From NCBI GenBank assembly GCA_048938005.1, contig JBHLMQ010000010.1:40482-104481 (forward strand): DNA of 64,000 bases. The letters are read 5' to 3'. Positions 31,630 to 47,045 of the stretch are shown one piece after another; positions within the stretch are counted from its first letter, which is position 1; every line of letters starts with the position of its first letter. A program made the position numbers and the translations under genes. The notes beneath the pieces were generated by a model. That model made no database searches. It saw nothing but the letters and a program-made list of their open reading frames with translations, and had not been told where the DNA came from. The DNA comes from Promethearchaeota archaeon. Lineage in GTDB: Archaea > Asgardarchaeota > Lokiarchaeia > Sigyniarchaeales > SOKP01.

Positions 31630-33216
31630 TTAAAGGTACTTAATTGTATTTAACATTACTTTAAGTTGATCATAAATTTCTAATCGATATTCAAGTCCTA
31701 ATTTAAAGAACAATAGGGACACCATTTTTTGCTCTAACAATTCATTTACATTGAATTCTTCCATGATTGTCGACCAGTCGCTCTTATCTGAAACTCGTAT
31801 GCCAATTAACACGACTTTGTTCTCTTCAATATCATTGATGATCTTAACGACAACATCTTTCCACATTGATTCAATATGATCTTTATCTCTAGCATCAAAA
31901 ATGCAAAATACTCCATCAGAGCCACTAACTTCAAAATTATGGTAAAGATAATTTTTTAATGTTGTACCATTTGAAAATTTATATAATTTTTCTTCTCTAT
32001 CATCTTTAATCTTTTCGCACTCATTTAAGTCATTAATCTCCGACAAGATTTGCAATCCAGGGCTCCAAAATTCATTTTCAGAAATGATTGTTAATGTTAA
32101 TAAAGAATCCAAACTCTCTCCAATTACTTTTCTTTCTTTTAAAATAGAATTGAGTTCCTCCATTAAATCTTGTTTGACCCGCTCCTCTTCTTCCTCTTTA
32201 CTCTTTGCTATGTAATGATATGCTATCAAAGTAAACGCGTCTTCAACGTTTTCACCGGTTAATGCGCTGGTCTCTAAAAAAGATATCTTTATATTTGGTT
32301 TATTGGATAATTCATTAACTAATTGTACGCCATCATCATATTCTACAGTTCTTTGATCTTTTAAATCAGTCTTATTTCCAATTATAATAATGGGGATTTC
32401 TCTTCCTCCAATAAAATCTTCTAATTCTTTATACCATTCTTTAACACTTTCAAAAGATTTTCTATTGGTAAGATCAAAAACTATAAATGCTGCCTGTGTG
32501 CCTAAATAGTAGGTTTGGCGAAATCGTTTGAAGTACATTTGAGCACCCACGTCCCAGAGCGAATAGATAATATTATTTCCAAAGAATTCAATGGAATGCG
32601 ATAAAATATTCAATCCAATTGTCGCTCGATAATCATGTGAAAATTTATTTTCTACAAATCGTCTGACAAGACTCGTTTTTCCTACCTCGTGATCTCCAAT
32701 TATAACAAATTTAAACCGGTACATTCCTCCTTGATCTAATCTCATTTGATAAATCTGATTTTTTACTCTTTCTATATAAGAAGTTTCATCTGTTTCATAT
32801 TCGAAATTAGGAATTGTTAACTGTATATTGTCACCTTCTTCCAAATTAAGAATTTGGACAGATTTTTCGGCAAGAAGATAGGCATATGGAGAGGCTTTGT
32901 CTACAGACGCTAAATTGTTTAATACAACACTAAGAGTTCTGTTTTCATCTAAAGAAATAAACAATAGTCTATAAAATTCTGTATCGAAACTTGCAGTACC
33001 AAATTTTTTAAACATAAATTCATCACGAATTCTTTCGACAATCGGATGAATAATTGAGGTTAAAACGCTAACTATTTCCATATCCACATCACTCCTTTTT
33101 TCACCAGCGATAACTAAACCTTGTTGATCGCTTACGATTACTGCTTCTACTTCTTTATTTATTTCCAAGAATTGATTGAATAATTCCGTAAAGAGTTGTT
33201 TTCTATTTATTGACAT
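31630..33216 (-). CDS. roadblock/LC7 + Rab-like small GTPase + degenerate GTPase-fold domain (paralog)
   Basis: EVEAVIVSDQQGLVIA; GDHEVGKTS, ATIG, WDVGAQ, GNKTD, ETSAL; C-terminal SDGVFCIFDAR...VVLIGIR. Confidence 0.88.
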   Translation of the reverse strand: MSINRKQLFTELFNQFLEINKEVEAVIVSDQQGLVIAGEKRSDVDMEIVSVLTSIIHPIVERIRDEFMFKKFGTASFDTEFYRLLFISLDENRTLSVVLNNLASVDKASPYAYLLAEKSVQILNLEEGDNIQLTIPNFEYETDETSYIERVKNQIYQMRLDQGGMYRFKFVIIGDHEVGKTSLVRRFVENKFSHDYRATIGLNILSHSIEFFGNNIIYSLWDVGAQMYFKRFRQTYYLGTQAAFIVFDLTNRKSFESVKEWYKELEDFIGGREIPIIIIGNKTDLKDQRTVEYDDGVQLVNELSNKPNIKISFLETSALTGENVEDAFTLIAYHYIAKSKEEEEERVKQDLMEELNSILKERKVIGESLDSLLTLTIISENEFWSPGLQILSEINDLNECEKIKDDREEKLYKFSNGTTLKNYLYHNFEVSGSDGVFCIFDARDKDHIESMWKDVVVKIINDIEENKVVLIGIRVSDKSDWSTIMEEFNVNELLEQKMVSLLFFKLGLEYRLEIYDQLKVMLNTIKYL

Positions 33217-33371
33217 GAGTTTTTCTACCCTTATTGAGTTTTAATAGCATTAAAAGTGTTCTTATCCTTATAATAAAATTAGTATTTTTAATATTTATTA
33301 ATTCGATGTATTAAAAAACATATTCTTAAATTAGTTTAATCTCATTAATTTATTATATTACATGATGAGTA

Positions 33372-33989
33372 ATGGAAATTGTCAAAAAAACAAGATATAA
33401 CATAATGCCCTCTTGTATAGTTTGCCATTTGAATATAGATAAAAGCACTGATTCAATTTATAAATGTGAAAATGGACATCCTGTTCATAAATATTGTCTA
33501 GCAGAATGGTTAATGCATTCACAAAACTGTCCATTATGCAATAACCCATATTCTCAAAGTTTAATTGATCAGTTTCAAGATTATATCGAGAAAAAGGAAA
33601 AAGAGAAACAATCAGCCTTAGAAAAGGAATTACAAAAAGAATCAATAAAGAAGATGGAGCAGGTCGCAGAAAAAATAGTTTTTCTCAAGCTTGTTGAATC
33701 TATTGAAGAATTGATTGACAAAAAAAAATATAATGAAGCAATTGATAAGCTCTTAGCTGAATACAATGAGAGTGCTATAGATGACAAAAATTTAAATGTT
33801 CTCTTTTTACTTGGAAAAGCTAACTATCTAAAAGGGCGATATGATTTAACTATTAACTTTTTATTTAAATTGGTTAAAATAAGATATGATTACCCTGATG
33901 GATTTTTATATTTAGGGAAATCATATGAAAAACTTGGACTTCATGATAAAGCCAAGTGGGCTTTTGAAAGGGTTTCAGAAAGCAAATAA
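33372..33989 (+). CDS. RING-finger (RING-H2-like) + coiled coil + TPR protein, putative E3 ligase
   Basis: CIVC...CENGHPVHKYCLAEW...CPLC; C-terminal TPR helices LLGKANYLKGRY, YLGKSYEKLG. Confidence 0.8.
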   Translation: MEIVKKTRYNIMPSCIVCHLNIDKSTDSIYKCENGHPVHKYCLAEWLMHSQNCPLCNNPYSQSLIDQFQDYIEKKEKEKQSALEKELQKESIKKMEQVAEKIVFLKLVESIEELIDKKKYNEAIDKLLAEYNESAIDDKNLNVLFLLGKANYLKGRYDLTINFLFKLVKIRYDYPDGFLYLGKSYEKLGLHDKAKWAFERVSESK

Positions 33990-34035
33990 TTTTATTGTCC
34001 TTTGACCTACAATTATTATAATCTTAAGAAATATA

Positions 34036-34620
34036 ATGACGCAACTTTCACAAGAAAAACAAAATATCATCAATCAAATTAGGGAAGTATACAGTATAAT
34101 ATCTAAAGATAAAGATTTTACCAGATTAATACCAGAAGTAAGAATGAATATTTCTGGTTCCCTCTCTAATGCAAAAAATAAAAGTGAAATCGCTGGAATT
34201 GAAGGTCGCATTACAATAATCAATGGTTTCCCGAAGGCTTCAGGAGAAATAAAATTTGGAGTATCTGATCATACTGCTAGACTAATTCTTACCGCTAAAA
34301 AATTTGATAATTCAATTAATTTTGTTATTAATTTAAAATATATACCCGAATTAATTGAATCAATTAAAAAAAATTCAAATCTAGAGTTACAGGAAATTAT
34401 TAGAGAAGAACAACCAGAATACGTAAAAAAAAAAGAGTATTCAACAATGCAATGGTTGATAAATGAGAGTATAAAAAAAAAGGGGAAAATACCCGATATA
34501 ATCTGGGATAAAGGCGCAATCGGGAAAGAACCAATGATGCGATTATTCGGTAAAAATTCTAATGATATAATAAGAAAACTCGAACAAATTATTAAATTGA
34601 TTAAGAAGGAAAAAATCTAA
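34036..34620 (+). CDS. thiN: thiamine-phosphate synthase, ThiN type (stand-alone)
   Basis: LIPEVRMNI, AGIEGRI, FGVSDHTAR, PDIIWDKGAIGKEPM. Confidence 0.85.
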   Translation: MTQLSQEKQNIINQIREVYSIISKDKDFTRLIPEVRMNISGSLSNAKNKSEIAGIEGRITIINGFPKASGEIKFGVSDHTARLILTAKKFDNSINFVINLKYIPELIESIKKNSNLELQEIIREEQPEYVKKKEYSTMQWLINESIKKKGKIPDIIWDKGAIGKEPMMRLFGKNSNDIIRKLEQIIKLIKKEKI

Positions 34621-35450
34621 ATTTCTCTTACACTAACCATATCAAGATTCACTTTTACTTTAGTCCCCTGTGAATGATCTGTTGGACCATGACCTTTGCC
34701 TATATGAAGATCATCTGCTCTTTGAATAGCATTTGTTAAATATGCTTTAGCGATATGTACTGCATTTTTTATATCATTTCCCTTAGCTAACTCAGCTGCG
34801 ATAGCTGAGGCAAAGGTACATCCTGTTCCATGGGTATTATTTGTATAAATACGAGGAGAGCGGAATTCTATAAATTTTTTCCCATCATAAAGAATATCTA
34901 TTGATTCATTAATATCTTGTAAATGTCCTCCTTTTACAACCACGTTTTTAGCACCCATCTCAAAGATTTTAATCGCGGATTGTTGAACCTCATTTATATT
35001 ACTTATTTCAATCCCTGTTAAAACATAAGCTTCGTGAAGATTTGGTGTTATTATATGAGCTAGCGGGACGAGTTTTGAGATAAGAGTAGAGTTTGCCTTA
35101 GCCTTTAGTAATGGATCACCACTTTTTGCAACCATTACAGGATCAACTATTAGAAGTTCAACATTATAATAAGATGCTCGATCAGCTACTACTTGTATAA
35201 TCTCTGAATTTGAAAGCATTCCTGTTTTCCAGGCATCGGCACCTATATCGGTCATTACTGAATCGATTTGTTTTGCTACAAATTCTGGATTGATTTCAAA
35301 AATACCTTGAACCCCTACGGTATTCTGAGCTGTCAATGCTGTAATTGCACTCATTCCAAAAACTCCGCGCGCAGAAAAGGTTTTCAAATCCGCCTGAATC
35401 CCCGCACCCCCACCTGAATCTGAACCTGCTATTGTTAAAACTTTTTTCAT
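34617..35450 (-). CDS. thiD: hydroxymethylpyrimidine/phosphomethylpyrimidine kinase
   Basis: LTIAGSDSGGGAGIQADLKTF, TAQNT, DPVMVAKSG, TPN, KGGH, THGTGCTFASA. Confidence 0.95.
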   Translation of the reverse strand: MKKVLTIAGSDSGGGAGIQADLKTFSARGVFGMSAITALTAQNTVGVQGIFEINPEFVAKQIDSVMTDIGADAWKTGMLSNSEIIQVVADRASYYNVELLIVDPVMVAKSGDPLLKAKANSTLISKLVPLAHIITPNLHEAYVLTGIEISNINEVQQSAIKIFEMGAKNVVVKGGHLQDINESIDILYDGKKFIEFRSPRIYTNNTHGTGCTFASAIAAELAKGNDIKNAVHIAKAYLTNAIQRADDLHIGKGHGPTDHSQGTKVKVNLDMVSVREI

Positions 35451-35562
35451 GATTATTACTATTAAAAAATTGAATTTTTAAATTAAAATAGATAAAATTA
35501 ATATTATTAATCTAACATATTGTTTTTTTTTTTCCTTTCTACTACCAATGAATATCAAAATT

Positions 35563-35742
35563 AAAGAATTCTTTATAATGGAATGGTTACTCAAAGAAGC
35601 TTTAGAAAAAAAGAGTAAAATTCCAGATATAATTTGGGATAAAGTAACTATGGGTAAAGAACCCATGGTCAGATTATTTAGGAGAAATTCAAAAGAGATT
35701 ATAGAGAAACTTAAGAAGATTCATGTTTTAATCTACATATAA
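35563..35742 (+). pseudogene. displaced copy of the thiN 3' end
   Basis: MEWLLKEALEKKSKIPDIIWDKVTMGKEPMVRLF aligns with thiN MQWLINESIKKKGKIPDIIWDKGAIGKEPMMRLF; the 5' part is absent. Confidence 0.85.
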
Positions 35743-35818
35743 TTTCTTATTATTAAAACACTACTATTTACATCTTTTTTACTATATATAAGTTGGTTAA
35801 TTTTTTAGCCAATTGAGA

Positions 35819-35839
35819 TAGTTTAAATTCTCTACTTGG
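35819..35839 (+). repeat. 21-nt direct repeat, copy 1 (TAGTTTAAATTCTCTACTTGG)
   Basis: Identical to 37318-37338. Confidence 0.85.
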
Positions 35840-35886
35840 AAATGTGAATGAGTTTTGATATGAAACATATTTGTATGTTATTGAGG

Positions 35887-35920
35887 TGTACAAACTTTTG
35901 AACGGATTGTACGAAAAATA
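35887..35920 (+). promoter_or_regulatory. putative operator upstream of kelch gene
   Basis: TGTACAAACTTTTGAACGGATTGTACGAAAAATA, directly before a TATA-like TTTTAAG; homologous to 38147 and 40454 sites. Confidence 0.7.
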
Positions 35921-36008
35921 GTTTTAAGAAATAGAAAATAAAACTGTTATTTAACAATTTTTTAATAAAAAAAAGCAGTTTTGCAAAATTAAAAAAGGTT
36001 AAAAAAAA

Positions 36009-37205
36009 ATGAAACGAGAAAAAAATAACAAAAAGAACAAGCAAAAACTATATGGCGTCATAGCTGGCACTCTTTTAATCGTGTTAACAATTATTATACC
36101 AGGAGTTGTAGCCGACACACCATCACTTCCAACTCGCGGTAATCCCGGGATGGCATACGACAGCGAATCAGATGTAATTGTCATATTTGGAGGATGGAAC
36201 ACGTCGACAACTCCCGGGGATGGCCCCCGTGACACATGGATATATGATTTCAACGCGGATACATACACTAAAAAAACACCTGCACCTGCACCGCGCCGAA
36301 GAGCAGAATCTTGTATGGTCTATGATTCACTAAGGGATCGAATAGTTCTTTTTGGGGGTTTAGAAAATTGGACTGTCTCAGGGGAGCGTAATGATACCTG
36401 GATTTATGATTACAATTCAGATACTTGGACTGAACTTTTTCCAGTTAGTGCTCCCTCAGAAAGAAGAGCCGCTCAGATGGCATATGATTCAGAGAGTGAT
36501 AGAATAATCCTATTTGGAGGAATGGATGGGTTCCCTTATCCATCGGCAACGTTTTATAATGAAACTTGGGCATATAATCCAGGGAGCAACACATGGCAAA
36601 AAATGAGCCCTGTTTTATCTCCCCGGGCTCGAACTAACCATTTCATGTCTTATGACAGCGAGAGTGACCGGATAATCCTTTTCGGAGGATGTCCAGGTTT
36701 AGCATATGGCTCCCTTTATGAGACTTGGGCTTATGATTATAACAGTGATATTTGGGTAAACCTAACTAGTAATATTCATCCATCAAAACGATCAGAACAT
36801 AAAATGGCGTACGACAGTGAATCAGATAGGATTGTGCTTTTTGGAGGTGGTACAGAGACCGTAACATACGGTGACACCTGGTTATACAATTACAACAATA
36901 ATTCTTGGGAACAGATGAATCCCGCTACTAGTCCAACACCAAGAGTTCGTCACGCAGCAGCATATGACTCGGAGTCAGATAGAGTTATAATCTATGGTGG
37001 GACTTATGATCCATGGCCTGCTGGTACTTCTATGGTTTCAACAGATAAGACGTGGGCATACGACGTAAATACTGACAGTTGGACTGAGGTTGACGTAGGT
37101 GACACGGGAGGAGACAATGGAATTCCAGGATATAACATATTGTTTTTAATTGGCACTCTATCTATTATAGTGATAATGATAACTAAAAAAAATAAGAAAT
37201 CATAA
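36009..37205 (+). CDS. secreted kelch-repeat beta-propeller with Loki-CTERM-like anchor
   Basis: Six YDS..DRxxxFGG-type ...TWxYD repeats; signal peptide; C-terminal IPGY-TM-KKNKKS. Confidence 0.88.
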   Translation: MKREKNNKKNKQKLYGVIAGTLLIVLTIIIPGVVADTPSLPTRGNPGMAYDSESDVIVIFGGWNTSTTPGDGPRDTWIYDFNADTYTKKTPAPAPRRRAESCMVYDSLRDRIVLFGGLENWTVSGERNDTWIYDYNSDTWTELFPVSAPSERRAAQMAYDSESDRIILFGGMDGFPYPSATFYNETWAYNPGSNTWQKMSPVLSPRARTNHFMSYDSESDRIILFGGCPGLAYGSLYETWAYDYNSDIWVNLTSNIHPSKRSEHKMAYDSESDRIVLFGGGTETVTYGDTWLYNYNNNSWEQMNPATSPTPRVRHAAAYDSESDRVIIYGGTYDPWPAGTSMVSTDKTWAYDVNTDSWTEVDVGDTGGDNGIPGYNILFLIGTLSIIVIMITKKNKKS

Positions 37206-37317
37206 ACAATTAATTAAATAGATTTGAGTTATTTCTCAAATAACTACATCTAAACCAATTTATTATCTTTTTTTTCTATTTTTAAGATTTTTATAAAAAA
37301 GATATTTCTAAAAGAAT

Positions 37318-37338
37318 TAGTTTAAATTCTCTACTTGG
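37318..37338 (+). repeat. 21-nt direct repeat, copy 2
   Basis: Identical to 35819-35839. Confidence 0.85.
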
Positions 37339-37508
37339 TAGTATCGAAAAGTTCAAAAATGAAACCCATTAATAACCTTTATTATACTTAAAAACTTAAT
37401 AAAACTTTAAAAAACAGAGAAGCACCAAAAGGATGAAATATCACCATCTTATTACAATCTGCTAAATAGCATTATTCACTGTTAACATTAAGTAGAATAT
37501 GAATTATC

Positions 37509-38081
37509 ATGATACCAGATAAAATAGACAATAAGAAAGAAGGAGAGACAGAGACACAATCAAAACCTTCATATCGAAGTAAAACAATTCATGTAAAATC
37601 AAAACTTGATATAAAAGTAAAGTCTCTTAGGTATAATCAGGAAAAAGTATTACACGGCAAAACCCTTCAAATTTATTGGTATATTCTCACTCACCATAAT
37701 GCAGGAATAAGAAAAATCCAGAAATCATTGAAGATTTCGTCTCCTGGAACCGTGTCTTATCAAATAAATAAATTATTGAAAGCAGGAATAATAGCAAAAA
37801 ACGAGAAAAATGGAAAATATTATGTAAATAAAGAATTAAAAAAGGGAGTATTAGGATTTTATACCCGCATCGGATTTTTGATGATACCCCGATTTTCACT
37901 ATACTTAATAGTCAATATTCTGGGTTTTATAGGATATATTTTTTTTGCAAGTGTTTATGGCGATGCTTTTATTACCAATCCTGGCAGTTTACTTCTATTA
38001 TTTTTTTTGATTTTTGGGACTACAGTATTTATTTTTGAGTCTATTAAAATCTGGAAAAGAAGACCGACGAAATTAAAATAA
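37509..38081 (+). CDS. membrane-anchored winged-helix transcription regulator (wHTH + 2 TM)
   Basis: LHGKTLQIYWYIL..GIRKIQKSL.ISSPGTVSYQINKLLKAG..GKYYV, then two hydrophobic helices. Confidence 0.85.
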   Translation: MIPDKIDNKKEGETETQSKPSYRSKTIHVKSKLDIKVKSLRYNQEKVLHGKTLQIYWYILTHHNAGIRKIQKSLKISSPGTVSYQINKLLKAGIIAKNEKNGKYYVNKELKKGVLGFYTRIGFLMIPRFSLYLIVNILGFIGYIFFASVYGDAFITNPGSLLLLFFLIFGTTVFIFESIKIWKRRPTKLK

Positions 38082-38146
38082 GAATTAATTATGACAATTA
38101 AAATTGTGAATTTTTAAAATAGAACATAATGCTATAAAAATGACAT

Positions 38147-38180
38147 TGTACGAATATTTGAACAGAGTGTACGAAAAATA
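38147..38180 (+). promoter_or_regulatory. putative operator upstream of NosD/PKD gene
   Basis: TGTACGAATATTTGAACAGAGTGTACGAAAAATA, then a TATA-like TTTTAAG. Confidence 0.7.
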
Positions 38181-38248
38181 GTATTTTAAGAGATAAAAAT
38201 AATGAATTATCTAACAATTTTCTAACCTACATTTTTGGTGAAATCAAA

Positions 38249-40369
38249 ATAAAATCACATCTAAAAATAAAAACAAAAATTTTGATAACTTCTGGTATAA
38301 TTTTCGCGATCTCAATTAATATACACAACAGCTTTATGTTTAATACTGACTTTAGCGAAATAAGTACAGAATCTAGCGATTATATTAGTTTAATTGAAAA
38401 AAATTTGAAAATCTCAAAGATATCAGGAATAATTCATATTAAAAATAATTGGTCTGATGCGAAGAATGCGGGATTAGTTACAGGCTCTGGTAATTATTCA
38501 GATCCTTATGTCATTGAGGATTTGGTGATCGATGGTAATTTTTCAGGCTTTTGCATTTGGATTGAAAATTCAAGTTATTTTCTAAGGATTGAGAATTGCA
38601 CTATATATAATTCTGCTTCTATTTCTGACAATTATTGGAAATGGAGGGAGGGAATCGAAAGTTGGTGGTTAGGGGGAGGAGGAATCGTATTATCTAATGT
38701 TAGCAATTCTTTAGTAATTAATAATAATGTTTTAAATAATTACAGAGGGATTCTTTTAGAATCTAGTAATAATAATACGCTTTCAGGTAATTTGGTAAAT
38801 AATAACGATAATTTTGGAATAGATTTAATAGATAGTTATAATAATACCCTTTCAGGAAATATCATGGATAAGCACGGTTTATTAATTTCTGGTCCAGTTG
38901 TACCAATGACTTCAGAACAATGGAATTCACCTAAGATAGATACTACTAATCTAGTAAATGGAAAACCAATATATTATTATACTAATGAAATAAATTTAGA
39001 GGCAAACAATTTTTCGAATGCTGGACAGGTTTTTTTAATTAATTGTAGTAAATCAAATATATCGAACTTGAACATATCTTCCAACTCAATGACAATTACA
39101 TTAGGTTTTTCTAATAATAACACTATCTCAGGAAATGTGTTAAATAACAATACTATTGGGATAATTTTATTCGAAAGTGATAATAACAACATTTCAGGAA
39201 ACATTGTAAATTACAATCTTATAGGGATACATTTAATTCAAAGTGACAATAACACCATTACAGCCAATTCTGTAGATAATAATATATTGCATGGTATTGG
39301 TCTAGAAATGAGTAGTAATAGCTCAATTTCTAGAAATAACGTAAGATATAATCGGGGTCTTGGAATAGCATTATTCTTAATTAATGATAATAATATTATT
39401 TCCAGAAATAATGTGAGCTATAATTCCGATAGTGGGATTCATGTCTTCGATAGTGATAATAACATTATTTCAAGTAACAATATAAGCTCTAATCAGGGAA
39501 ATGGGATTCAGGTTATTTTTAATTGTAATAATAACAATATTTCGGGGAATACTGCGAATAATAATTTAGTTGGAATATACTTTTTTGATAGTTATCTCAA
39601 CTACATTTCGGGAAACACGGCCGACAATAACCTGGAGGGAATTAGATTAGAACTTAGTAATAATAACTCAATTTTTAATAATGCCGTAAGATCTAATGAT
39701 TTTTCCGGGATAAACTTAGAAAATTGTATATATAATAATATCTCAGAAAATATGGTAAAATATAGTGGTATTGCGGGGATTAACATAAATAATAGTGATA
39801 ATAACAGTATTTCGAAGAATACGGCAAATAATAACGTGAAGTTCGGTATTGGCTTAAATATGAGTAATCATAACTTAATTTTTGAAAATATTGCTAATGA
39901 TAATGAGATTGGGATTTACTTAGAACGTTCCTGTTATAACAATGTATTTGGAAACACCTTTATTAATAACACAGTTATAGATTACTATAATGATCCTGGT
40001 ACTAGCTGTGACTTAATCCCAGAGGCATTTTTTACTGCAAATACAACTATGATTACTTTGTCCAATAATGCTGTTCAATTCCAGTTTAGAGGCTATGCAG
40101 GAGATGAACCTACAATTTTTAAATGGAATTTCGGAGATGATTCAGCAAATTCTTCAGCGAGAAATCCAGTTCATCATTATACATTACCCGGAGTTTACAC
40201 CGTGATCTTAACCGTTATAGATATGGATGGAGATTCAGATGTTTTGGTAAGAAGTGACTACATTAGAGTTCAACAAGAATCTGTAATTCCGGGATATAAT
40301 CTCTTCTTTTTACTTGGCTTATTATCTTTTGCAACAATCATTATGAGTAAGAATAAAGGAAAAAAGTGA
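38249..40369 (+). CDS. secreted NosD/CASH right-handed beta-helix + PKD domain protein with Loki-CTERM-like anchor
   Basis: GSG..SDPYVIE, many GIxL..S.NNxISxN repeats, WNFGD...NPVHHY..PGVYTVILTV PKD, IPGY-TM-basic tail; likely ATA start after GGTGA (ORF track starts at 38282). Confidence 0.88.
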   Translation: MKSHLKIKTKILITSGIIFAISINIHNSFMFNTDFSEISTESSDYISLIEKNLKISKISGIIHIKNNWSDAKNAGLVTGSGNYSDPYVIEDLVIDGNFSGFCIWIENSSYFLRIENCTIYNSASISDNYWKWREGIESWWLGGGGIVLSNVSNSLVINNNVLNNYRGILLESSNNNTLSGNLVNNNDNFGIDLIDSYNNTLSGNIMDKHGLLISGPVVPMTSEQWNSPKIDTTNLVNGKPIYYYTNEINLEANNFSNAGQVFLINCSKSNISNLNISSNSMTITLGFSNNNTISGNVLNNNTIGIILFESDNNNISGNIVNYNLIGIHLIQSDNNTITANSVDNNILHGIGLEMSSNSSISRNNVRYNRGLGIALFLINDNNIISRNNVSYNSDSGIHVFDSDNNIISSNNISSNQGNGIQVIFNCNNNNISGNTANNNLVGIYFFDSYLNYISGNTADNNLEGIRLELSNNNSIFNNAVRSNDFSGINLENCIYNNISENMVKYSGIAGININNSDNNSISKNTANNNVKFGIGLNMSNHNLIFENIANDNEIGIYLERSCYNNVFGNTFINNTVIDYYNDPGTSCDLIPEAFFTANTTMITLSNNAVQFQFRGYAGDEPTIFKWNFGDDSANSSARNPVHHYTLPGVYTVILTVIDMDGDSDVLVRSDYIRVQQESVIPGYNLFFLLGLLSFATIIMSKNKGKK

Positions 40370-40453
40370 AAAATGTATTATGCTATTGTGGGTGAAAATC
40401 AAACGAGAATTATGAATTTTTTAAAAACTGATAATTTAATGAAATAATGGCGG

Positions 40454-40487
40454 TGTATAACAATTTGAACAGGGTGTTCAAAACATA
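40454..40487 (+). promoter_or_regulatory. putative operator upstream of SBP-wHTH operon
   Basis: TGTATAACAATTTGAACAGGGTGTTCAAAACATA, containing the inverted repeat TTTGAAC-N5-GTTCAAA; followed by TTATATAAA. Confidence 0.72.
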
Positions 40488-40559
40488 ATTATATAAAATG
40501 GCAAAAGAATCAACTAATTAACAATTAAAAGCAATTTACAAAAAAAAATTAAAAAAAAA

Positions 40560-42665
40560 GTGCATAATAGTATGAAATATCGCCGTCTTCTCGTAATTTG
40601 TTTTATTATGTTGTTTTCTATTCAAAAAGTGCCAATAAATCAAGCGACACAAAATTTTTTTGAAAGAGATTCTGAACAAGTTATTTCTCAGGAGATAAGA
40701 TCTTCAGCTAATCTCGTCCCACCTAAAGTATTGAAGTATATTTCACCATATCCATCAATTGAATATGATATGATTGGACATTATTCATATATCGCTACAC
40801 TAATTTTCGATCCTTTGGTTGAATATTCATTTGATACTGGAGAACTTGTTCCAGCTTTAGCTAGACAGTGGGTTGTGACAAACGATAGCAAGCACTGGAT
40901 TTTTACACTCAGAGACGATGTAAAATTCCATGATGGAACAACATTTAATGCATCAGCGGTTAAGTTCACTTACGATCGATTTATCGATCCAGCTCATCCT
41001 GCTTATGTAACTAATCCAATTTCCGAGCTAGGTGAAATGCCATTAGAGTCTGTTGAAATTCTAGATGAATATAGAGTATCTATTAATTTTAACCAATCAT
41101 ATGCACCTTTTATATATCAGGAAGCCGCTTATTGTGGGATCTATTCGCCTAACAGTTTTGAAGGAGGTCCGAATGTTATTAATCCAATTGGAACAGGTCC
41201 TTATTATTTAGATAAGATTGCGAGTAATTCAACCTTTCAAAAATTTATCCGAAATGATCAACATTTTCGAGGAGTTCCACCTTTTGAAGAAATCCAATTT
41301 TTCACTTATAGTTCTTGGGGGGATTTTCAAGCGGCAGTGGAAGCACATAACGGAGATTTCACCACTAGAGGTGTGAATTCGTTACTGGAAAACGATACTT
41401 ACTGGCAAGAGTCCTTGGGTCCTGATGGGATACAATATGGATATTTCAATCATCTTCATCCCATTGTAGATGACCCAAATGTAAGAATAGCCATTAATTA
41501 TGCTATTAATAATCAATTATATGTCGATCAAAATTTATCACGTGTTAATAAGGGGATTAAACCGCTTCGTAGCGTTATTTATTCCGGAGATCCAAATCAT
41601 AATGAATTAATTCAAGGTTATCCATATAATGTTAATTTAGCAAATAGCATATTAGACAGTGCAGGATATTCCCCACTTGTCGATGGGTATCGATTTGATA
41701 TTGAACTCGTAGGATTGAACTCTGAATTATTAGAAGCAATTAAAACAGATCTTGATCAGATTGGTATTCGTTGTAATATTGTTTCTGGTTGGCTTCCTGA
41801 GCTTTATGCGGGAAATTTTGATATTTTTATTTTTGAATGGGCTGTAATAATGGATCCTAGCCTAACCAGAAAGTTACTTCATACGTCCGGTGATATTAAT
41901 TATGGAGGTTATTCAAACTCTGAAATGGATCTTTATACAACTTTGGGTCAACAAACACCTGTTCGACAAGAGCGTGAATATTATTATTTTCAGGTGCAGC
42001 AAGTTGCTCAAGAAGAAGCTCCTCTTCTTTTAATCCAGGAAACAAAAAAGATTTATTTAAGATCAAATCATGTAATCTCTTTTATTCAAATGAGTAAGGA
42101 TGGACGAATTATTTTTAATTATTCGACTCAAAAGCAAGACACAGATATCTATAAAATGGAAGAAATCGAAGTATCTTCTGATTCAGTTTACTTTCCCTTT
42201 ACGGATGGTGTTGTCACTTTAAAAAACAACCAGATTGAAGGTAACATGACAATGACACATAAATTAACGAATCTTATTCCTGATCAACAAGAAACAGGTA
42301 AATTTTATGAGTTGCAAGTTAATAACTCTGATTTGGATTATAAAGTACGGTGTTATTATGATTTAGATGAAATTTTCTATACGGATCCTCTTAAAGAACA
42401 AGAAGTCTTTGAATGGAATTATACTACCCAGTCCTGGAACAGATTGGAAATTATCACTTCAAATACTAATCTTCGTTTTTCCGAAATTCAATTAAAAGGA
42501 AGTGCAATTCTTCGTCTCGGTTATATAGACTTAATTTTACTGACCTATAAATATCTTCCAATTATTCTAATCATTATCGGGCCAATTATCGCTTTAACAA
42601 GTATAATTATAGTTAAAAATCGGAAATTAATGAAGAAAATCAAAGAAGAGTATGATTTATTATGA
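40560..42665 (+). CDS. family-5 substrate-binding protein with extra C-terminal beta domain and TM anchor
   Basis: LVPALA..W, FTLRDDVKFHDGTTFNASAVKFT, PIGTGPY, VRIAINYAIN, NYGGYSN; C-terminal TM plus short cytoplasmic tail. Confidence 0.85.
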   Translation: MHNSMKYRRLLVICFIMLFSIQKVPINQATQNFFERDSEQVISQEIRSSANLVPPKVLKYISPYPSIEYDMIGHYSYIATLIFDPLVEYSFDTGELVPALARQWVVTNDSKHWIFTLRDDVKFHDGTTFNASAVKFTYDRFIDPAHPAYVTNPISELGEMPLESVEILDEYRVSINFNQSYAPFIYQEAAYCGIYSPNSFEGGPNVINPIGTGPYYLDKIASNSTFQKFIRNDQHFRGVPPFEEIQFFTYSSWGDFQAAVEAHNGDFTTRGVNSLLENDTYWQESLGPDGIQYGYFNHLHPIVDDPNVRIAINYAINNQLYVDQNLSRVNKGIKPLRSVIYSGDPNHNELIQGYPYNVNLANSILDSAGYSPLVDGYRFDIELVGLNSELLEAIKTDLDQIGIRCNIVSGWLPELYAGNFDIFIFEWAVIMDPSLTRKLLHTSGDINYGGYSNSEMDLYTTLGQQTPVRQEREYYYFQVQQVAQEEAPLLLIQETKKIYLRSNHVISFIQMSKDGRIIFNYSTQKQDTDIYKMEEIEVSSDSVYFPFTDGVVTLKNNQIEGNMTMTHKLTNLIPDQQETGKFYELQVNNSDLDYKVRCYYDLDEIFYTDPLKEQEVFEWNYTTQSWNRLEIITSNTNLRFSEIQLKGSAILRLGYIDLILLTYKYLPIILIIIGPIIALTSIIIVKNRKLMKKIKEEYDLL

Positions 42666-43231
42666 CATCTGAGAAAGTAGAGCAAAAATCTGAAGATTTT
42701 GAGTTAGAATCAGAATCTACATACCAAAATGAAACCAAGCATATACTATTAAAATCTGGGATTAAAATAAAGCCTGTTTATCTTAGCAAGGATAAAGTAT
42801 TACAAGGTAAAGCTCTTCAAATCTATTGGTACATTTTAACCCATAAAAGCGCAGGAGTAAGGGAAATTCAGAAATCATTGGATTTTGCCTCTCCCGGAAC
42901 CGTATCGTATCAATTAAAAAAATTATTGCAAGCAGGAATTATATTAAAAAAGGAGAAAGATGGAAAATATTATCTGAAGAAAGAATCAAAAAAAGGATTG
43001 TTAGGATTTTATATTCGCGTTGGTTATTTTCTAATACCCCGATTTACATTATACTTAATTTTTTATATTCTGGGTTTTATAGTATATATTTTTTTTGCAT
43101 GTATTTATGGTGACACTTTTATTTTAAATCCAGGTGGTTTACTTCTATTATTTTTCTTGATTTTTGGAACGGCTATATTTATGTTTGAATCTATCAAAAT
43201 TTGGAAAACTAGACCAGTAAAATTAAAATAA
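42662..43231 (+). CDS. membrane-anchored winged-helix transcription regulator (wHTH + 2 TM), paralog of 37509-38081
   Basis: LQGKALQIYWYIL..GVREIQKSL..ASPGTVSYQLKKLLQAG..GKYY, two TMs; ATGA overlap with upstream SBP. Confidence 0.85.
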   Translation: MTSEKVEQKSEDFELESESTYQNETKHILLKSGIKIKPVYLSKDKVLQGKALQIYWYILTHKSAGVREIQKSLDFASPGTVSYQLKKLLQAGIILKKEKDGKYYLKKESKKGLLGFYIRVGYFLIPRFTLYLIFYILGFIVYIFFACIYGDTFILNPGGLLLLFFLIFGTAIFMFESIKIWKTRPVKLK

Positions 43232-43312
43232 GAATTAGTTTTATTTCATTCAACAGTTATAGGGTTTATTAAATCTAGAAATGAAATATTTGAATGAATT
43301 AAAACAAAATAT

Positions 43313-44632
43313 TCATTTATTTTTTGTTTTTTTCTTGCTTTCTAATGCATCTTTTAAAAGCTTGATGGCACAAAATTCGCCACACATGCTACAAACTTCA
43401 TTATCGATAGAATTTCCATTTCTATAATGAACCTCCCTTGCTAAATCCGGATCTATGGAATGTTTAATCATTCCCTCCCAATCCAAATTTTTCCGAGCAA
43501 TATCCATCTGATAATCCCATTTTGAAGCTCTTCTGCCATATTTAGCAACATTAACAGCATGAGCAGCAATTTTAGAAGCAATTACTCCTCTTTTTACTTC
43601 TTCCTTTTTAGGAAGACCTAAATGTTCTGAAGGAGTTACATAACATAAATAATCAGCTCCCGCTAAACCCGCAATAGTTCCACCAATAGCACTAACGATA
43701 TCATCGTATCCGGGGGCAATATCTGTAACTAATGGTCCTAGTACATAAAATGGAGCTTCATCACATAAAGATTTTTGAATTTTAACATTTTGTTCGATTT
43801 CATGTGCAGGAATATGACCTGGACCTTCAACCATAACTTGGACATTACTTTTCCATGCTCTTTTAACTAATTTTGAGATTTCAATTAATTCTTGTATTTG
43901 AACATAATCAGTAGAGTCAAAAATACAACCAGGTCTAAATCCATCTCCTAAAGATAAAGTGAAATCAAATTCTTGAGCCATTTCAAGTAAATAATCATAT
44001 CTACGATTAAAAGGATTCTCCATCTCATTTTCTAAAATCCATGAAGCTAAGAAAGTTCCACCCCTTGAAACGACCCCCATTGTACGTGGATGTTTAACCA
44101 AATAATCTACAATTTCTTTTGTGACTCCAACATGGATGGTAAAAAAGTCAACACCTTCATTTGCTTGCTCTTCTACAACATTGAACATGTCATCTTCATC
44201 CATATGAATAATGGCTCCTTTGGTTTCTATAGCTCTCAAAGCAGTCTGATAAATAGGAACAGTACCAATAGGAACTTTAAGCTCATTAAGTATTTGTTTT
44301 CTAATTGTTTGGACATCCGATTCGGTTATACCAGTACTTAAATCCATCACAGTATCAGCGCCATATTTAACTGCGATTTTAGCTTTTTCTAATTCTTCTT
44401 CAATATTACAAACAGTTTTAGAAGAACCTACATTTGCGTTGATTTTTACTAATAATCCTTTACCAATACCAATAGGCGGATCTAATTCTCTTCTATTGGA
44501 TTTAGGGATTATAATTCTTCCTTTTTCAATACCTCGCTTTATGAAATCAACATCAACTTGCTCATTTTTAGCAACTATTTCTATTTCTTTGGTAATGTTT
44601 CCGTTCCTAACAGTTTTTATTAATGTTGACAA
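43313..44632 (-). CDS. thiC: phosphomethylpyrimidine synthase
   Basis: KINANVGSS, GADTVMDLST, GTVPIYQ, VSRGG, LSLGDGFRPG, EGPGH, CYVTPSEHL, CSMCGEFCA. Confidence 0.96.
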   Translation of the reverse strand: MSTLIKTVRNGNITKEIEIVAKNEQVDVDFIKRGIEKGRIIIPKSNRRELDPPIGIGKGLLVKINANVGSSKTVCNIEEELEKAKIAVKYGADTVMDLSTGITESDVQTIRKQILNELKVPIGTVPIYQTALRAIETKGAIIHMDEDDMFNVVEEQANEGVDFFTIHVGVTKEIVDYLVKHPRTMGVVSRGGTFLASWILENEMENPFNRRYDYLLEMAQEFDFTLSLGDGFRPGCIFDSTDYVQIQELIEISKLVKRAWKSNVQVMVEGPGHIPAHEIEQNVKIQKSLCDEAPFYVLGPLVTDIAPGYDDIVSAIGGTIAGLAGADYLCYVTPSEHLGLPKKEEVKRGVIASKIAAHAVNVAKYGRRASKWDYQMDIARKNLDWEGMIKHSIDPDLAREVHYRNGNSIDNEVCSMCGEFCAIKLLKDALESKKKTKNK

Positions 44633-44756
44633 TACTTAGACCTGTCTACTAATAATATTTCATAAATCATTAAAATATATACTCTATGACAAAATAATAA
44701 TGATAAAATTATATTCTTTTGTCTTATTATTTAAAATTTCTAAAGTAATAAAAAAA

Positions 44757-45227
44757 TTAATCATATCCAATCTTTAATTGCTTTAGAAGTTCAATTAAAG
44801 ATTCAGTTAATTTATAATTTTTAAGTTGATTAAAAGGAACAAATCTGGCATCAATTGCGTCATCCGCTGCCTTAGGTGGTTGATTTAGATCTCCTTCTAT
44901 TTGTTCAACAAAATAATTGATTAAAACATAATGATATTCAATTTTTCCAGAATTATCATACATAATTTTATTAATAACACCCGCTAATTTTGAAACCTTT
45001 ACTATAAATCCTGTCTCTTCAAAAGCTTCTCTCTCTGCTGCTGCTTCCACCTTTTCTCCAAGGTCTAAATGGCCTCCAGGAATGCTCCAATACCCAGCAT
45101 CAGGATTATATTTTCTCTTAACTAATAATAAATGATTATCTCGAACTAATAGAACACCCACACCTATATGTGGACGCACTGGGTATTTTCTTGTATCAAA
45201 AGCACTTAGTTCTTCTCTATCAACCAT
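44757..45227 (-). CDS. NUDIX hydrolase
   Basis: Nudix box GGHLDLGEKVEAAAEREAFEETG. Confidence 0.9.
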   Translation of the reverse strand: MVDREELSAFDTRKYPVRPHIGVGVLLVRDNHLLLVKRKYNPDAGYWSIPGGHLDLGEKVEAAAEREAFEETGFIVKVSKLAGVINKIMYDNSGKIEYHYVLINYFVEQIEGDLNQPPKAADDAIDARFVPFNQLKNYKLTESLIELLKQLKIGYD

Positions 45228-45266
45228 AACTTTACATTTTATAACATTTTTTAATTATTAATACGA

Positions 45267-45797
45267 TTGGAAAATTTTAAAGATTCATTATTTGATGACT
45301 TTCTTATGGTGCGCCCATGGTATTGGCCTGAGGGAGGACAGCCTCATCGCACAGAACCTTTTACTTGGATTATTAAGAAAAAGATAGCTGCTTCTTGGTG
45401 GCCGGATATGTCATTAATCAAGAGATATAAAGAAGAAAAAATTAAAGTAGTTATAAATTGCTCTGAATTTGATAATAGAAACGATATCCAAAATGATTTT
45501 AAGTATTATCATATCAATATATCTGATTTTGGGACTCCAACAGATTCTCAACTAGAAAAATTCTTAGATATTACGAGTAAATATGGAGCTAATGGAGATC
45601 CAATAGTAGTCCACTGCGTAGCAGGTTGTGGAAGAACTGGTATAATGATCGTAGCTTGGGCTACCTTTAATGGCTATATTCCAAAAGGGTTGGATCCAGT
45701 AAAATGGATTCGAAAATTTAGACCGTGTTGCTTAGAAACGAAAGAACAAATGGAATTAGCACGAAAAATAGCTAAAAAGTATAGAAAACAACTTTAA
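45267..45797 (+). CDS. dual-specificity/tyrosine protein phosphatase (CX5R)
   Basis: ISDFGTP general-acid loop, VHCVAGCGRTG, IR..RP...ET.EQ. Confidence 0.88.
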   Translation: MENFKDSLFDDFLMVRPWYWPEGGQPHRTEPFTWIIKKKIAASWWPDMSLIKRYKEEKIKVVINCSEFDNRNDIQNDFKYYHINISDFGTPTDSQLEKFLDITSKYGANGDPIVVHCVAGCGRTGIMIVAWATFNGYIPKGLDPVKWIRKFRPCCLETKEQMELARKIAKKYRKQL

Positions 45798-45875
45798 TGT
45801 AAAGTATTTAAGACTGGAATTTATTTTATTATTAAGAATATAATATTTTTAATGCAAAATTATCCTTAATATTGG

Positions 45876-47045
45876 ATGCTTATGCAAAAATCAGACTATA
45901 TTTATATGATAACTGATAATATCATGGTATTTCGAATTAATCTGCCAACAGATCTTCGAGGAAATCAATTGCGCGAGCATCTAAATAAATATGATGAAAA
46001 ATATCTAAAAATTATTGCTGGTTTTGATAAAAATTTTTTAGAACACTTCCTAATAATATCGAAGGGAAGAACTCAAGATGATCTTGCTGAAGTTCTTAAG
46101 AAAATGGAAAAAATTTCTTTTATGATTGGCCCTAAAGGAAATTTAAACTACGTAACGTCCAATCAAATACAACATATTCTTACTAAGTTAAGTTCTTTAA
46201 ATTTAAATGAAATCAAAGAAGCGAAAATTAGTAAAATCGCTGATGAGCAAATAGAAAAAGAGTTTAGTACATCATACAGTACAACATCTGCATTAGAACA
46301 ACAACTTGCTAGTGCTGCATTTTACCTGGAGTCAATTGGATATTCAAATCAAGAAATAAAGGAAAAATTTGATGAAGTAAGACAAGATCCTTCAAAATTA
46401 GATATCTTATTTACGTTACAACCTAAAGAAATTTATAGTATGCCCCAAGAAATCCAACCAAGGCGCACCCCCCCATCAAGACCTCAAAACGCTTCATCCG
46501 CTCAATCTACCTCTATTGAAAGTAGTCAGGAAACTCAAAATGCTATTGAGCAACATGTCAGCTCAATTGAACATGAAATAACAGGGGAAAGAGCAAAGAA
46601 AGTTGAAGAGATTATGGAACTTATAAAAACTCATGTTAAAGATAACATGAATCAGAGTTATGAAAGAGTCTTTAGACAGATCCACCCCGATAGGTTAAAT
46701 CGAGCTTTCAAAATGTTACGGGATACAAAAAGAAAATCTAAAAGAATGACACTTTACTTAGAATGGTTCTTTTGTTCACATCTTTTATCTAATATTGAAG
46801 TGAAGGTGGAACATTGGCAGACTAGTAGTGCAGCAGGTCATGGAAGTACAGGAGTATATACAGCAGGAATTAATTTTGGACGTTATGATCAAATTATAAG
46901 AGAGTTTCCAGATAATAAATTAGCCAAAGTTATTAAAATTGCAAGAAGAATTTTACAAAATCCCACTAAGAAAGCAATTCAAAAGCTTGGACAAGATCTC
47001 ATTGCAGAAACAGGTTTTGATGAGCACCTCTACTTCACAGATTAA
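45876..47045 (+). CDS. hypothetical protein with central Ser/Thr/Pro/Gln-rich linker
   Basis: 389 aa ORF; no family recognised. Confidence 0.7.
   Translation: MLMQKSDYIYMITDNIMVFRINLPTDLRGNQLREHLNKYDEKYLKIIAGFDKNFLEHFLIISKGRTQDDLAEVLKKMEKISFMIGPKGNLNYVTSNQIQHILTKLSSLNLNEIKEAKISKIADEQIEKEFSTSYSTTSALEQQLASAAFYLESIGYSNQEIKEKFDEVRQDPSKLDILFTLQPKEIYSMPQEIQPRRTPPSRPQNASSAQSTSIESSQETQNAIEQHVSSIEHEITGERAKKVEEIMELIKTHVKDNMNQSYERVFRQIHPDRLNRAFKMLRDTKRKSKRMTLYLEWFFCSHLLSNIEVKVEHWQTSSAAGHGSTGVYTAGINFGRYDQIIREFPDNKLAKVIKIARRILQNPTKKAIQKLGQDLIAETGFDEHLYFTD

Follow-up and report, generated by a model that had tools for sequence, protein, structure and literature searches.

The closest analogue, compared by description, of the system considered here is the pair ArnR/ArnR1 of Sulfolobus acidocaldarius, one-component regulators that are bound to the membrane, activate the promoter of the archaellum and recognize inverted repeats (TCGAC-N5-GTCGA) upstream of the transcription factor B recognition element (BRE) and the TATA box (PMC6396743). 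Our subject is a cassette of genes in a stretch of 64,000 nucleotides (nt), hereafter the window, from a Promethearchaeota archaeon of the class Lokiarchaeia (GCA_048938005.1, contig JBHLMQ010000010.1, positions 40,482 to 104,481). Two of the genes encode small proteins with a winged helix-turn-helix (wHTH) domain followed by two transmembrane (TM) helices, and three encode surface proteins, each of the latter preceded by a copy of the same putative operator. In the available part of the ArnR report (PMC6396743), the two Sulfolobus paralogs are shown acting on one promoter. The window proteins resemble them in being archaeal, in combining an N-terminal HTH domain with two C-terminal TM helices, in occurring as a paralogous pair, in their association with N5-spaced inverted repeats upstream of putative BRE/TATA elements, and in having surface structures as predicted targets. 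In ArnR as portrayed there, a HAMP and a sensor domain separate the HTH from the TM helices, whereas in the window proteins the wing runs into the first TM helix and no HAMP match was obtained. An ectodomain partner, a fusion or a shared docking module, such as we describe below, does not appear in that part of the ArnR report. Palindromic sites just upstream of BRE/TATA are also bound, with activation as the outcome, by TFB-RF1 and TrmBL1 of Pyrococcus furiosus, which, in the available parts of their descriptions, are soluble proteins of other families and carry no membrane anchor (PMC5937170, PMC4706686). The wHTH+2TM regulators are most likely small DNA-binding membrane proteins that are coupled or fused to surface proteins and would control neighbouring surface-protein genes through a conserved site.

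Bacterial systems offer further points of comparison. ToxR/ToxS, TcpP/TcpH and CadC also consist of a membrane-resident factor with an extracytoplasmic sensing part or partner, and act on promoters of envelope genes. These systems have an OmpR-type wHTH, a single TM helix and either a periplasmic domain within the chain or a small partner. The window regulators contain no OmpR-type domain and gave no match to Trans_reg_C, so that they do not belong to the ToxR/CadC family, whose logic the original prediction had invoked. Their anchor is a C-terminal TM hairpin with a loop of 10-14 residues, and the large, exchangeable ectodomain belongs to a separate or N-terminally fused protein. The RsgI-SigI pairs of Clostridium thermocellum, which are paralogous to one another and signal through the membrane, are similar in combining a constant transmission module with varied extracellular modules and in controlling surface or extracellular genes; there, the pair is an anti-sigma and a sigma factor, the membrane protein lacks a DNA-binding domain, and the signal passes by autoproteolysis and release. 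SgrR-type regulators likewise use a family-5 fold for sensing and not for transport. In SgrR this fold is cytoplasmic and fused to the HTH, whereas in the window it is extracellular and anchored to the membrane.

The motif on which the original prediction was based was confirmed in the form TGTAY-N5-TTTGAAC-N5-GTWCRAA at positions 35887-35915, 38147-38175 and 40454-40482, in each case on the + strand and with 0 mismatches. None of 100 shuffles of the sequence reached three matches. A scan of the whole genome (3,720,495 bases, 30% G+C, in which the window contig is C65) found only the three copies of the window, and a nhmmer profile of the ~140-nt upstream modules gave significant E-values genome-wide for the same three places only. 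These sites lie within 4.6 kilobases (kb) and are adjacent to the only two wHTH-2TM genes of the genome. The recognition unit is better described as GTWC-N8-GWAC followed by a further tetrad 5 nt on. The window sites follow the pattern GTAC-N8-GAAC-N5-GTWC, with tetrad centres 12 and 9 base pairs (bp) apart.

Operator 1 (35887-35915, +; GTAC-N8-GAAC-N5-GTAC, tetrads at 35888-91, 35900-03 and 35909-12) stands in the promoter of a gene for a kelch beta-propeller surface protein (36009-37205, +) with an N-terminal signal or anchor. It is followed on the same strand at 35916-35929 by AAATAG and then by a TATA-like TTTTAAG, 9 nt past the last tetrad, which by their spacing would be the BRE and the TATA box. 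Operator 2 (38147-38175, +; GTAC-N8-GAAC-N5-GTAC) precedes the gene of a surface protein with a NosD/parallel beta-helix and PKD domains (38282-40369, +). Operator 3 (40454-40482, +; GTAT-N8-GAAC-N5-GTTC), which was rightly described as containing a perfect inverted repeat (TTTGAAC-N5-GTTCAAA), precedes a gene for a family-5 solute-binding protein (SBP; 40560-42665, +). Starts of open reading frames (ORFs) were placed at the first start codon after a stop, and for the SBP gene the likely start is the ATG at 40572. The conserved box TAACAATT is present after all three operators (35952-35959, 38212-38219 and 40519-40526, all +), where transcription would be expected to start. The three protein identities given in the original prediction agree with Pfam. 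Regulator 1 (190 amino acids (aa); 37509-38081, +) has no partner gene here. Regulator 2 (189 aa; 42662-43231, +) forms an operon with the SBP gene, and its start overlaps the SBP stop codon (ATGA, 42662-42665). The two regulators are indeed paralogous, with 63% identity, and no further copies were found in the genome.

Some details of these promoters stand apart. The TAACAAT box (at 35952, 38212 and 40519 and in aligned sites elsewhere) resembles the operator half-site TTTGAACA minus one base, in inverted orientation and ~44 bp from the proximal tetrad; it could serve as an initiator or leader element, or else as a weak additional site. An exact 20-nt repeat is present beside two promoters, with corrected positions as follows: copy 1 lies at 35820-35839 (+), ~50 nt upstream of operator 1, and copy 2 at 37319-37338 (+), in the promoter region of the regulator 1 gene. 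An element similar to it was seen in two related loci (L041 and L031). The NosD/PKD gene has ATA at 38249-38251 where relatives have ATG-AAA-TCA-. Its first canonical in-frame start is the TTG at 38282, with which the basic start of the signal peptide is lost; this could reflect the use of a non-canonical start codon, decay of the gene or a mistake in sequencing.

The regulators were modelled with AlphaFold on a 27-sequence alignment. Residues 1-45 were disordered, and a winged helix was predicted confidently over 50-126, with helices at 50-61, 66-73 and 78-90 and strands at 94-105 (predicted local distance difference test scores of 85-89 over 50-110). The wing strands at 117-126 run into a TM helix at 127 without a linker. 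Both proteins have two C-terminal hydrophobic helices, 127-149 and 157-183, joined by a short loop (10-14 residues), and the chains of 189-190 aa leave no ectodomain. Because the hairpin follows directly on the cytoplasmic wing, the model would place the DNA-binding domain against the inner face of the membrane. In all forms of the regulator the hairpin is conserved, with invariant residues and the loop YGDxFITNP; this conservation points to a functional domain and not simply to an anchor. In a third architecture of 229-271 aa, a TM pair replaces the TM helix of the partner, giving the order 2TM-wHTH-2TM. The regulators fall below the cut-offs of the ArsR/SmtB, MarR and TrmB families. Their Pfam matches (TrmB, MarR, HTH_24, HTH_5, HTH_20 and LexA_DNA_bind) were all sub-cut-off, the best scores being 19.8 against a cut-off of 25.6 for TrmB, 19.5 against 22 for HTH_5 and, in NCBIfam, 23.2 against 55 for HTH_metalloreg. 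Foldseek searches of the PDB gave a probability of 1.0 to AspA, MecI, YodB, MarR and IclR chains, with E-values of at least 0.016.

The pairing of a surface protein with a membrane-bound transcription factor, as originally proposed, was found in several forms. In two genomes a beta-helix ectodomain, a TM helix, the wHTH and two further TM helices are encoded in one ORF (G071, 955 aa; G132, 904 aa), in the order signal anchor, beta-helix, TM, basic linker, wHTH, two TMs, and both fusion loci are syntenic with the window. Further fused records were P0129 and, as partial sequences, P0128 and P0019. In loci L038 and L039 the regulator is fused in frame to a multi-TM protein of 185 aa, giving a 352-aa form; the 185-aa protein is a separate gene with its own operator in L035 and L042 (64% identity over 168 aa). 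Short regulators overlap the upstream partner gene in 19 of 23 cases, by 4 nt in 17 and by 1 nt in 2. The partner ectodomains in this position are of unrelated types (SBP_bac_5, NosD/beta-helix and SBBP beta-propeller), and all partners have one C-terminal module in common, which consists of a Y-[LF]-P motif, a TM helix, KNRK and an acidic tail ending in L. On the strength of the in-frame fusions, the 4-nt overlaps and this TM+tail module across unrelated ectodomains, the view that the wHTH+2TM protein and the surface protein form a functional pair is supported by genome comparison. A complex prediction of regulator 2 with the 70-residue C-terminus of its partner, run without controls, scored 0.13 against a mark of 0.32 and is given no weight in either direction. 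The leaders of beta-helix partner genes (L044, L053, L089 and L092) are conserved over ~60 nt; they contain a Shine-Dalgarno-like GGAG and an apparent relic of a start region, A[CT]G-AAA-TCA-CAT-CC, with a stop before the real start.

In the window, the partner module was detected on the SBP only. Its SBP_bac_5 fold (188.2 bits, residues 95-432) is followed by ~140 residues, a TM helix and a basic/acidic tail, in line with the extra domain, TM and tail of the original prediction. No gene for a permease or an ATPase adjoins it, also as first stated, the neighbours being NosD/PKD, wHTH-2TM and ThiC. A weak match of the SBP to NCBIfam NF010149 (SgrR-type) was observed. The Loki-CTERM model NF033507 (cut-off 19.9 bits) gave 23.3 for the kelch protein, above the cut-off, 19.5 for the NosD/PKD protein, just under it, and no match for the SBP. 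The partner module resembles a Loki-CTERM signal to which a tail has been added, and the regulator may therefore also sense how its partner is sorted or processed. Since the kelch protein has, and the NosD/PKD protein may have, a Loki-CTERM-type end and the partner module is on the SBP only, these two look like regulated outputs and not sensors; of the proposed sensor-factor pairs, the pairing is supported and the sensor role of these two proteins is not. The orthologs of regulator 1 in G071 and G132 are the C-terminal part of beta-helix::wHTH fusions, and the promoter of regulator 1 is homologous to that of the fused gene in G071, without an operator. Regulator 1 no longer has its fused partner.

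The association of the motif with the regulators was followed through 154 genomes of the order. Regulator homologs were found in 53 of them, and 46 loci around homologs were fetched and their ORFs called. At loci with short (~187 aa) or fused regulators, the site TYYGWAC-N5-GTWCRRA lies upstream of the regulator-adjacent gene; 24 such sites were found in the window and 15 loci, 18-163 nt from the nominal ORF starts, some of which are over-extended. An exact palindrome with N8 spacing was present in 14 of 19 testable partner promoters of the short class, and in 17 of 19 with at most 1 mismatch. The 34-nt extended pattern gave 56 matches with at most 2 mismatches, against 20 for the reversed control. 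Among its 26 perfect sites, 17 lie within 6 kb of a regulator homolog, which agrees with the co-occurrence with wHTH-2TM loci that the original prediction called for. Six others are on short contigs that end before the expected position of the regulator gene, and 3 are unlinked. Two of the unlinked sites stand upstream of a kelch protein (G104:C50) and of a 334-aa protein with an N-terminal TM (G071:C7), and the third (G082) is followed by a beta-helix protein that still carries the partner tail. Together with the other classes and families taken up below, the motif accompanies the regulator family across genera and families.

Several of these results weigh against a regulon run by such regulators. 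Since the genomes are related to one another, the counts overestimate the number of independent cases. No enrichment was seen for the bare 19-bp pattern, which has 44 exact sites in the 154 genomes, 14 of them within 6 kb of a regulator homolog, against 71 for the reversed control; for this pattern only position is telling, and not the genome-wide number. Perfect sites without a detected regulator occur in G044, G069, G077 and G117. The sites of G044, G069 and G117 point towards the end of their contig, which the partner gene reaches or runs into in two of the three; the site of G077 presumably also faces a contig end. The gene pair of L051 has no recognisable operator, and L035 has variant tetrads only. 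The wHTH domain lies under every curated Pfam and NCBIfam cut-off, and its Foldseek matches are generic winged-helix ones. The TATA, BRE and transcription start site assignments follow from spacing. Two features of the promoters, TATA-like runs upstream of some operators and a BRE-like flank of the proximal tetrad, are also adverse and are taken up below.

Promoters 1 and 2 of the window are alike over ~130 nt, as they would be if the similarity were a neutral, recent duplication or encoded a leader RNA hairpin, and had no operator function. The distribution of conservation speaks strongly to the contrary. In 23 aligned sites from several genomes and two genera, information per column was 0.2 bits in the distal upstream flank (-50 to -13), rose to 1.05 over the upstream half-site and to 1.25 over the palindrome, stood at 1.1 in AAATAG and at ~0.6 in the TATA-like and TAACAA boxes, and fell to 0.22 beyond. 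Thus the flanks have decayed and the tetrads (1-1.25 bits) have not. The similarity is centred on the motif and not spread evenly; uniform similarity, which the original prediction had named as grounds for giving up the idea, was not seen, and the neutral duplication was rejected on this ground. Mismatches occur at palindrome position 5 in 10 of 23 sites and at position 2 in 8 of 23, so that pairing is not kept, and an RNA stem was rejected on this account. The third half-site is in direct orientation, which does not suit a hairpin, and a search of 33000-46000 against Rfam gave no match at E-values up to 1. Duplication or hairpin together retain hardly any probability.

The same operator grammar was found beside other classes of the regulator. 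At 2TM-wHTH-2TM loci the palindrome GTTCRRA-NN-TYYGAAC is present 54-234 nt upstream of the regulator's own gene in 20 of 23 cases, a classical signature of autoregulation, and the regulator is the only constant neighbour of the palindrome. In the Asgard family f16, each of 5 close homologs comes after a gene for an SBP_bac_5 protein that has a TM helix at its C-terminus, and all five loci have GTWC-N8-GWAC upstream; one of these loci reads GTTC-N8-GAAC-N5-GTAC-N8-GTAC. Distant homologs of 150-165 aa after DUF3160 genes have GTTC-N8-GAAC in 3 of 3 cases with an intact upstream region. Taken together, these are all 8 gene pairs whose upstream DNA could be read among 16 loci fetched from other Asgard families. 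In the fetched loci the motif has a density of 1.25-1.7 per 10 kb, against 0.21 in the whole genome. A spacing of 14 nt separates the two halves of the 19-bp palindrome in L043 and L046, where other sites have 3; the additional 11 nt amount to one helical turn, which would suit two protein units sitting on the same side of the DNA. The recognition helix GTV[S/T]YQ or GTVAYQ co-varies with GTAC or GTTC tetrads, respectively. This pattern follows two clades and is therefore not independent evidence. A second dimer unit, made up of the proximal tetrad and a degenerate ATAG arm over the BRE, was considered and rejected, as in the 2TM class the mate lies upstream.

Nine of the 23 short or fused regulator loci sit between thiD (with or without thiN) and thiC (L031, L033, L034, L037, L042, L043, L047, L048, L077 and L078 are listed with the window). 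In the window the flanking genes are at 34036-35450 (ThiN and ThiD, upstream of the cassette) and 43313-44632 (ThiC, downstream; Pfam). This position invites the explanation that an unlinked factor of a different kind, such as a thiamine regulator, recognizes the operator, and that the wHTH-2TM protein has a role other than DNA binding, such as anchoring or chaperoning. The weak matches of the wHTH domain, and two further genomes in which an operator-bearing surface gene stands alone in the same slot without a regulator, agree with it. Operators, however, accompany the cassette in seven loci without a thi gene within ~8 kb (L032, L035, L036, L044, L049, L050 and L052); cassettes outside the thi slot keep their operators, and the thiamine regulator was rejected for this reason. 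The palindrome that precedes the regulator gene itself at 20 of 23 loci of the 2TM class, the regulator as its sole constant neighbour, the same grammar beside distant homologs in other families and the lack of any other DNA-binding gene in the cassette all argue for the wHTH protein as the factor that binds, and an unlinked factor is highly improbable. The content of the thi slot varies from 1 to 5 genes, and it thus resembles a variable island.

Whether the operator serves activation or repression was judged from promoter geometry. In both classes the TATA-like box begins 9 nt past the proximal tetrad on the side of the target gene, and with the spacing usual in archaea the operator would span approximately -38 to -66, with the TAACAAT box at the transcription start. 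Of the 17 loci of the 2TM class that have an upstream neighbour, 16 carry the palindrome between two divergently oriented genes, and the divergent gene starts ~82 nt from the palindrome. Twelve divergent genes were tested (L054-L076): 5 encode Opp/Dpp-type ABC permeases, 2 DUF3160 proteins and 5 unknown proteins of ~170 aa. As an observation in its own right, these 2TM-wHTH-2TM loci tie the wider family to family-5-type uptake systems. The products of genes downstream of operators have a C-terminal hydrophobic segment in 22 of 22 cases and an N-terminal one in 20 of 22. When TATA-like hexamers were profiled by position upstream of 271 genes, no peak emerged, and aragorn detected 9 tRNAs only, too few for a tRNA promoter consensus.

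Because the operator lies upstream of the TATA-like box, as in the Pyrococcus and ArnR precedents, activation is favoured. In the available parts of these reports, TrmBL1 sites upstream of BRE/TATA activated 2 of 3 templates and downstream sites repressed 9 of 9 (PMC4706686), TFB-RF1 has a palindrome just upstream of a weak BRE (TCTG-N5-CAGA, one target being an ABC transporter; PMC5937170), and the ArnR boxes lie at -43 to -84 (PMC6396743). Activation by recruitment of basal factors is, judging from the sequence, the somewhat likelier mode of action; repression would retain a sizeable share of the probability.

One elaborated form of repression deserves separate weighing. The wHTH protein would be a repressor, possibly of its own gene, with the proximal tetrad and its CRAAA flank lying over the BRE or, with the true promoter further upstream, the operator lying over the start, and the partner would relieve repression on ligand binding. 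Negative autoregulation is the commoner design for small wHTH regulators. The CGAAA flank of the proximal tetrad fits the Pyrococcus BRE consensus, quoted as VRAAA in the available part of its source (PMC5937170), and competition with transcription factor B is possible. TATA-like runs precede the first tetrad by 8-20 nt in several promoters, and these would make the operator a repressor site. These upstream runs vary in position, whereas the downstream TATA-like box is fixed at 9 nt in 23 aligned sites. At 2TM loci, a TATA-like box 9 nt from the palindrome, on its far side from the regulator gene, would place the start of a transcript towards that gene inside the palindrome; the same box, however, faces the divergent gene, with its start at a constant ~82 nt, in the geometry of operator, TATA and gene seen in the window. 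The behaviour of TrmBL1 on upstream and downstream sites also counts against it, and we regard a partner-relieved repressor as rather unlikely.

Release of the wHTH domain by regulated intramembrane proteolysis, after which it would act in soluble form on a signal from the surface protein, was also part of the original prediction. There are precedents in bacteria and eukaryotes, and MecI chains, which come from a system with proteolytic signalling, are among the Foldseek matches, although this resemblance is at the level of the fold. The architecture of the proteins is difficult to reconcile with such a step. With membrane anchors on either side of the wHTH in the fused and the 2TM-wHTH-2TM forms, a single cut would not suffice; the wing continues straight into TM1 without a linker; and the hairpin, with its loop, shows the conservation of a functional domain. 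No protease gene was found in the window between 27000 and 52000. The regulon is nearly all cis-linked, as is expected for a factor that does not diffuse. Proteolytic release is very unlikely.

The probable reading that emerges from this comparison is that one-component regulators embedded in the membrane govern a local regulon. The regulator would consist of a disordered N-terminal tail, a cytoplasmic winged helix and the conserved two-helix membrane hairpin. Dimers of the regulator, singly or in pairs, most likely occupy the array of GTWC tetrads, that is, a palindrome of 16-18 bp (TGTWCAAA-NN-TTTGWACA) with a third tetrad 5 nt on, and this array would end 9 nt upstream of the TATA-like box in promoters of envelope-protein genes. 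Predicted targets in the window are the kelch gene, the NosD/PKD gene and the SBP-wHTH2 operon, the last of which would then regulate itself. The SBP, which is without a transporter and translationally coupled with regulator 2, is the candidate signal input and would dock on the regulator hairpin to relay an extracellular signal. DNA binding would take place at the membrane, where the regulator stays. This fits the observation that the targets are nearly all adjacent to the regulator and without exception encode membrane-inserted proteins. The anatomy of the sequence, the co-occurrence, the fusions and the conservation are observed; from them we infer the DNA binding of the wHTH domain, the contact between partner and regulator, the promoter elements and the sign of regulation.

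The genes further upstream in the window are of other kinds. On the - strand, tandem paralogs (29958-31517 and 31630-33216) encode proteins of 519 and 528 aa with a Ras/Roc/Arf-type small GTPase domain, which is preceded by an N-terminal extension of ~165 residues. On the + strand, 33372-33989 encodes a 205-aa protein with an N-terminal RING-H2 zinc finger and weak, sub-cut-off TPR matches.

The family profile matched 209 of the 400 phylum genomes scanned, some of which have at least six copies, and 582 cluster representatives among 1.84 billion proteins. Look-alike clusters in the ESM Atlas are labelled as Thor-, Bathy- and Nitrososphaerota archaea and are leads only. No description of the system was found in the full-text literature, a search that left subscription journals mostly outside. 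We tentatively propose, at a little under even chances, an undescribed large family of trans-membrane modules in Asgard and perhaps other archaea, in which exchangeable receptors with family-5 binding-protein, beta-helix, beta-propeller or DUF3160 ectodomains dock via one TM and tail on a winged-helix factor of the membrane; this factor would read GTWC-N8-GWAC sites without leaving the membrane, so that envelope promoters are controlled there. Asgard archaea are the closest known archaeal relatives of eukaryotes, and little is known of how they sense their surroundings and control their surface. The cassette offers a concrete circuit for this, with a defined operator, a small and expressible regulator and partner ectodomains that hint at what is sensed. 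If the model holds, it would represent a second and much more modular type of archaeal membrane-bound transcription factor beside ArnR, and the predicted regulon would help to annotate many 'hypothetical' genes of Asgard archaea.

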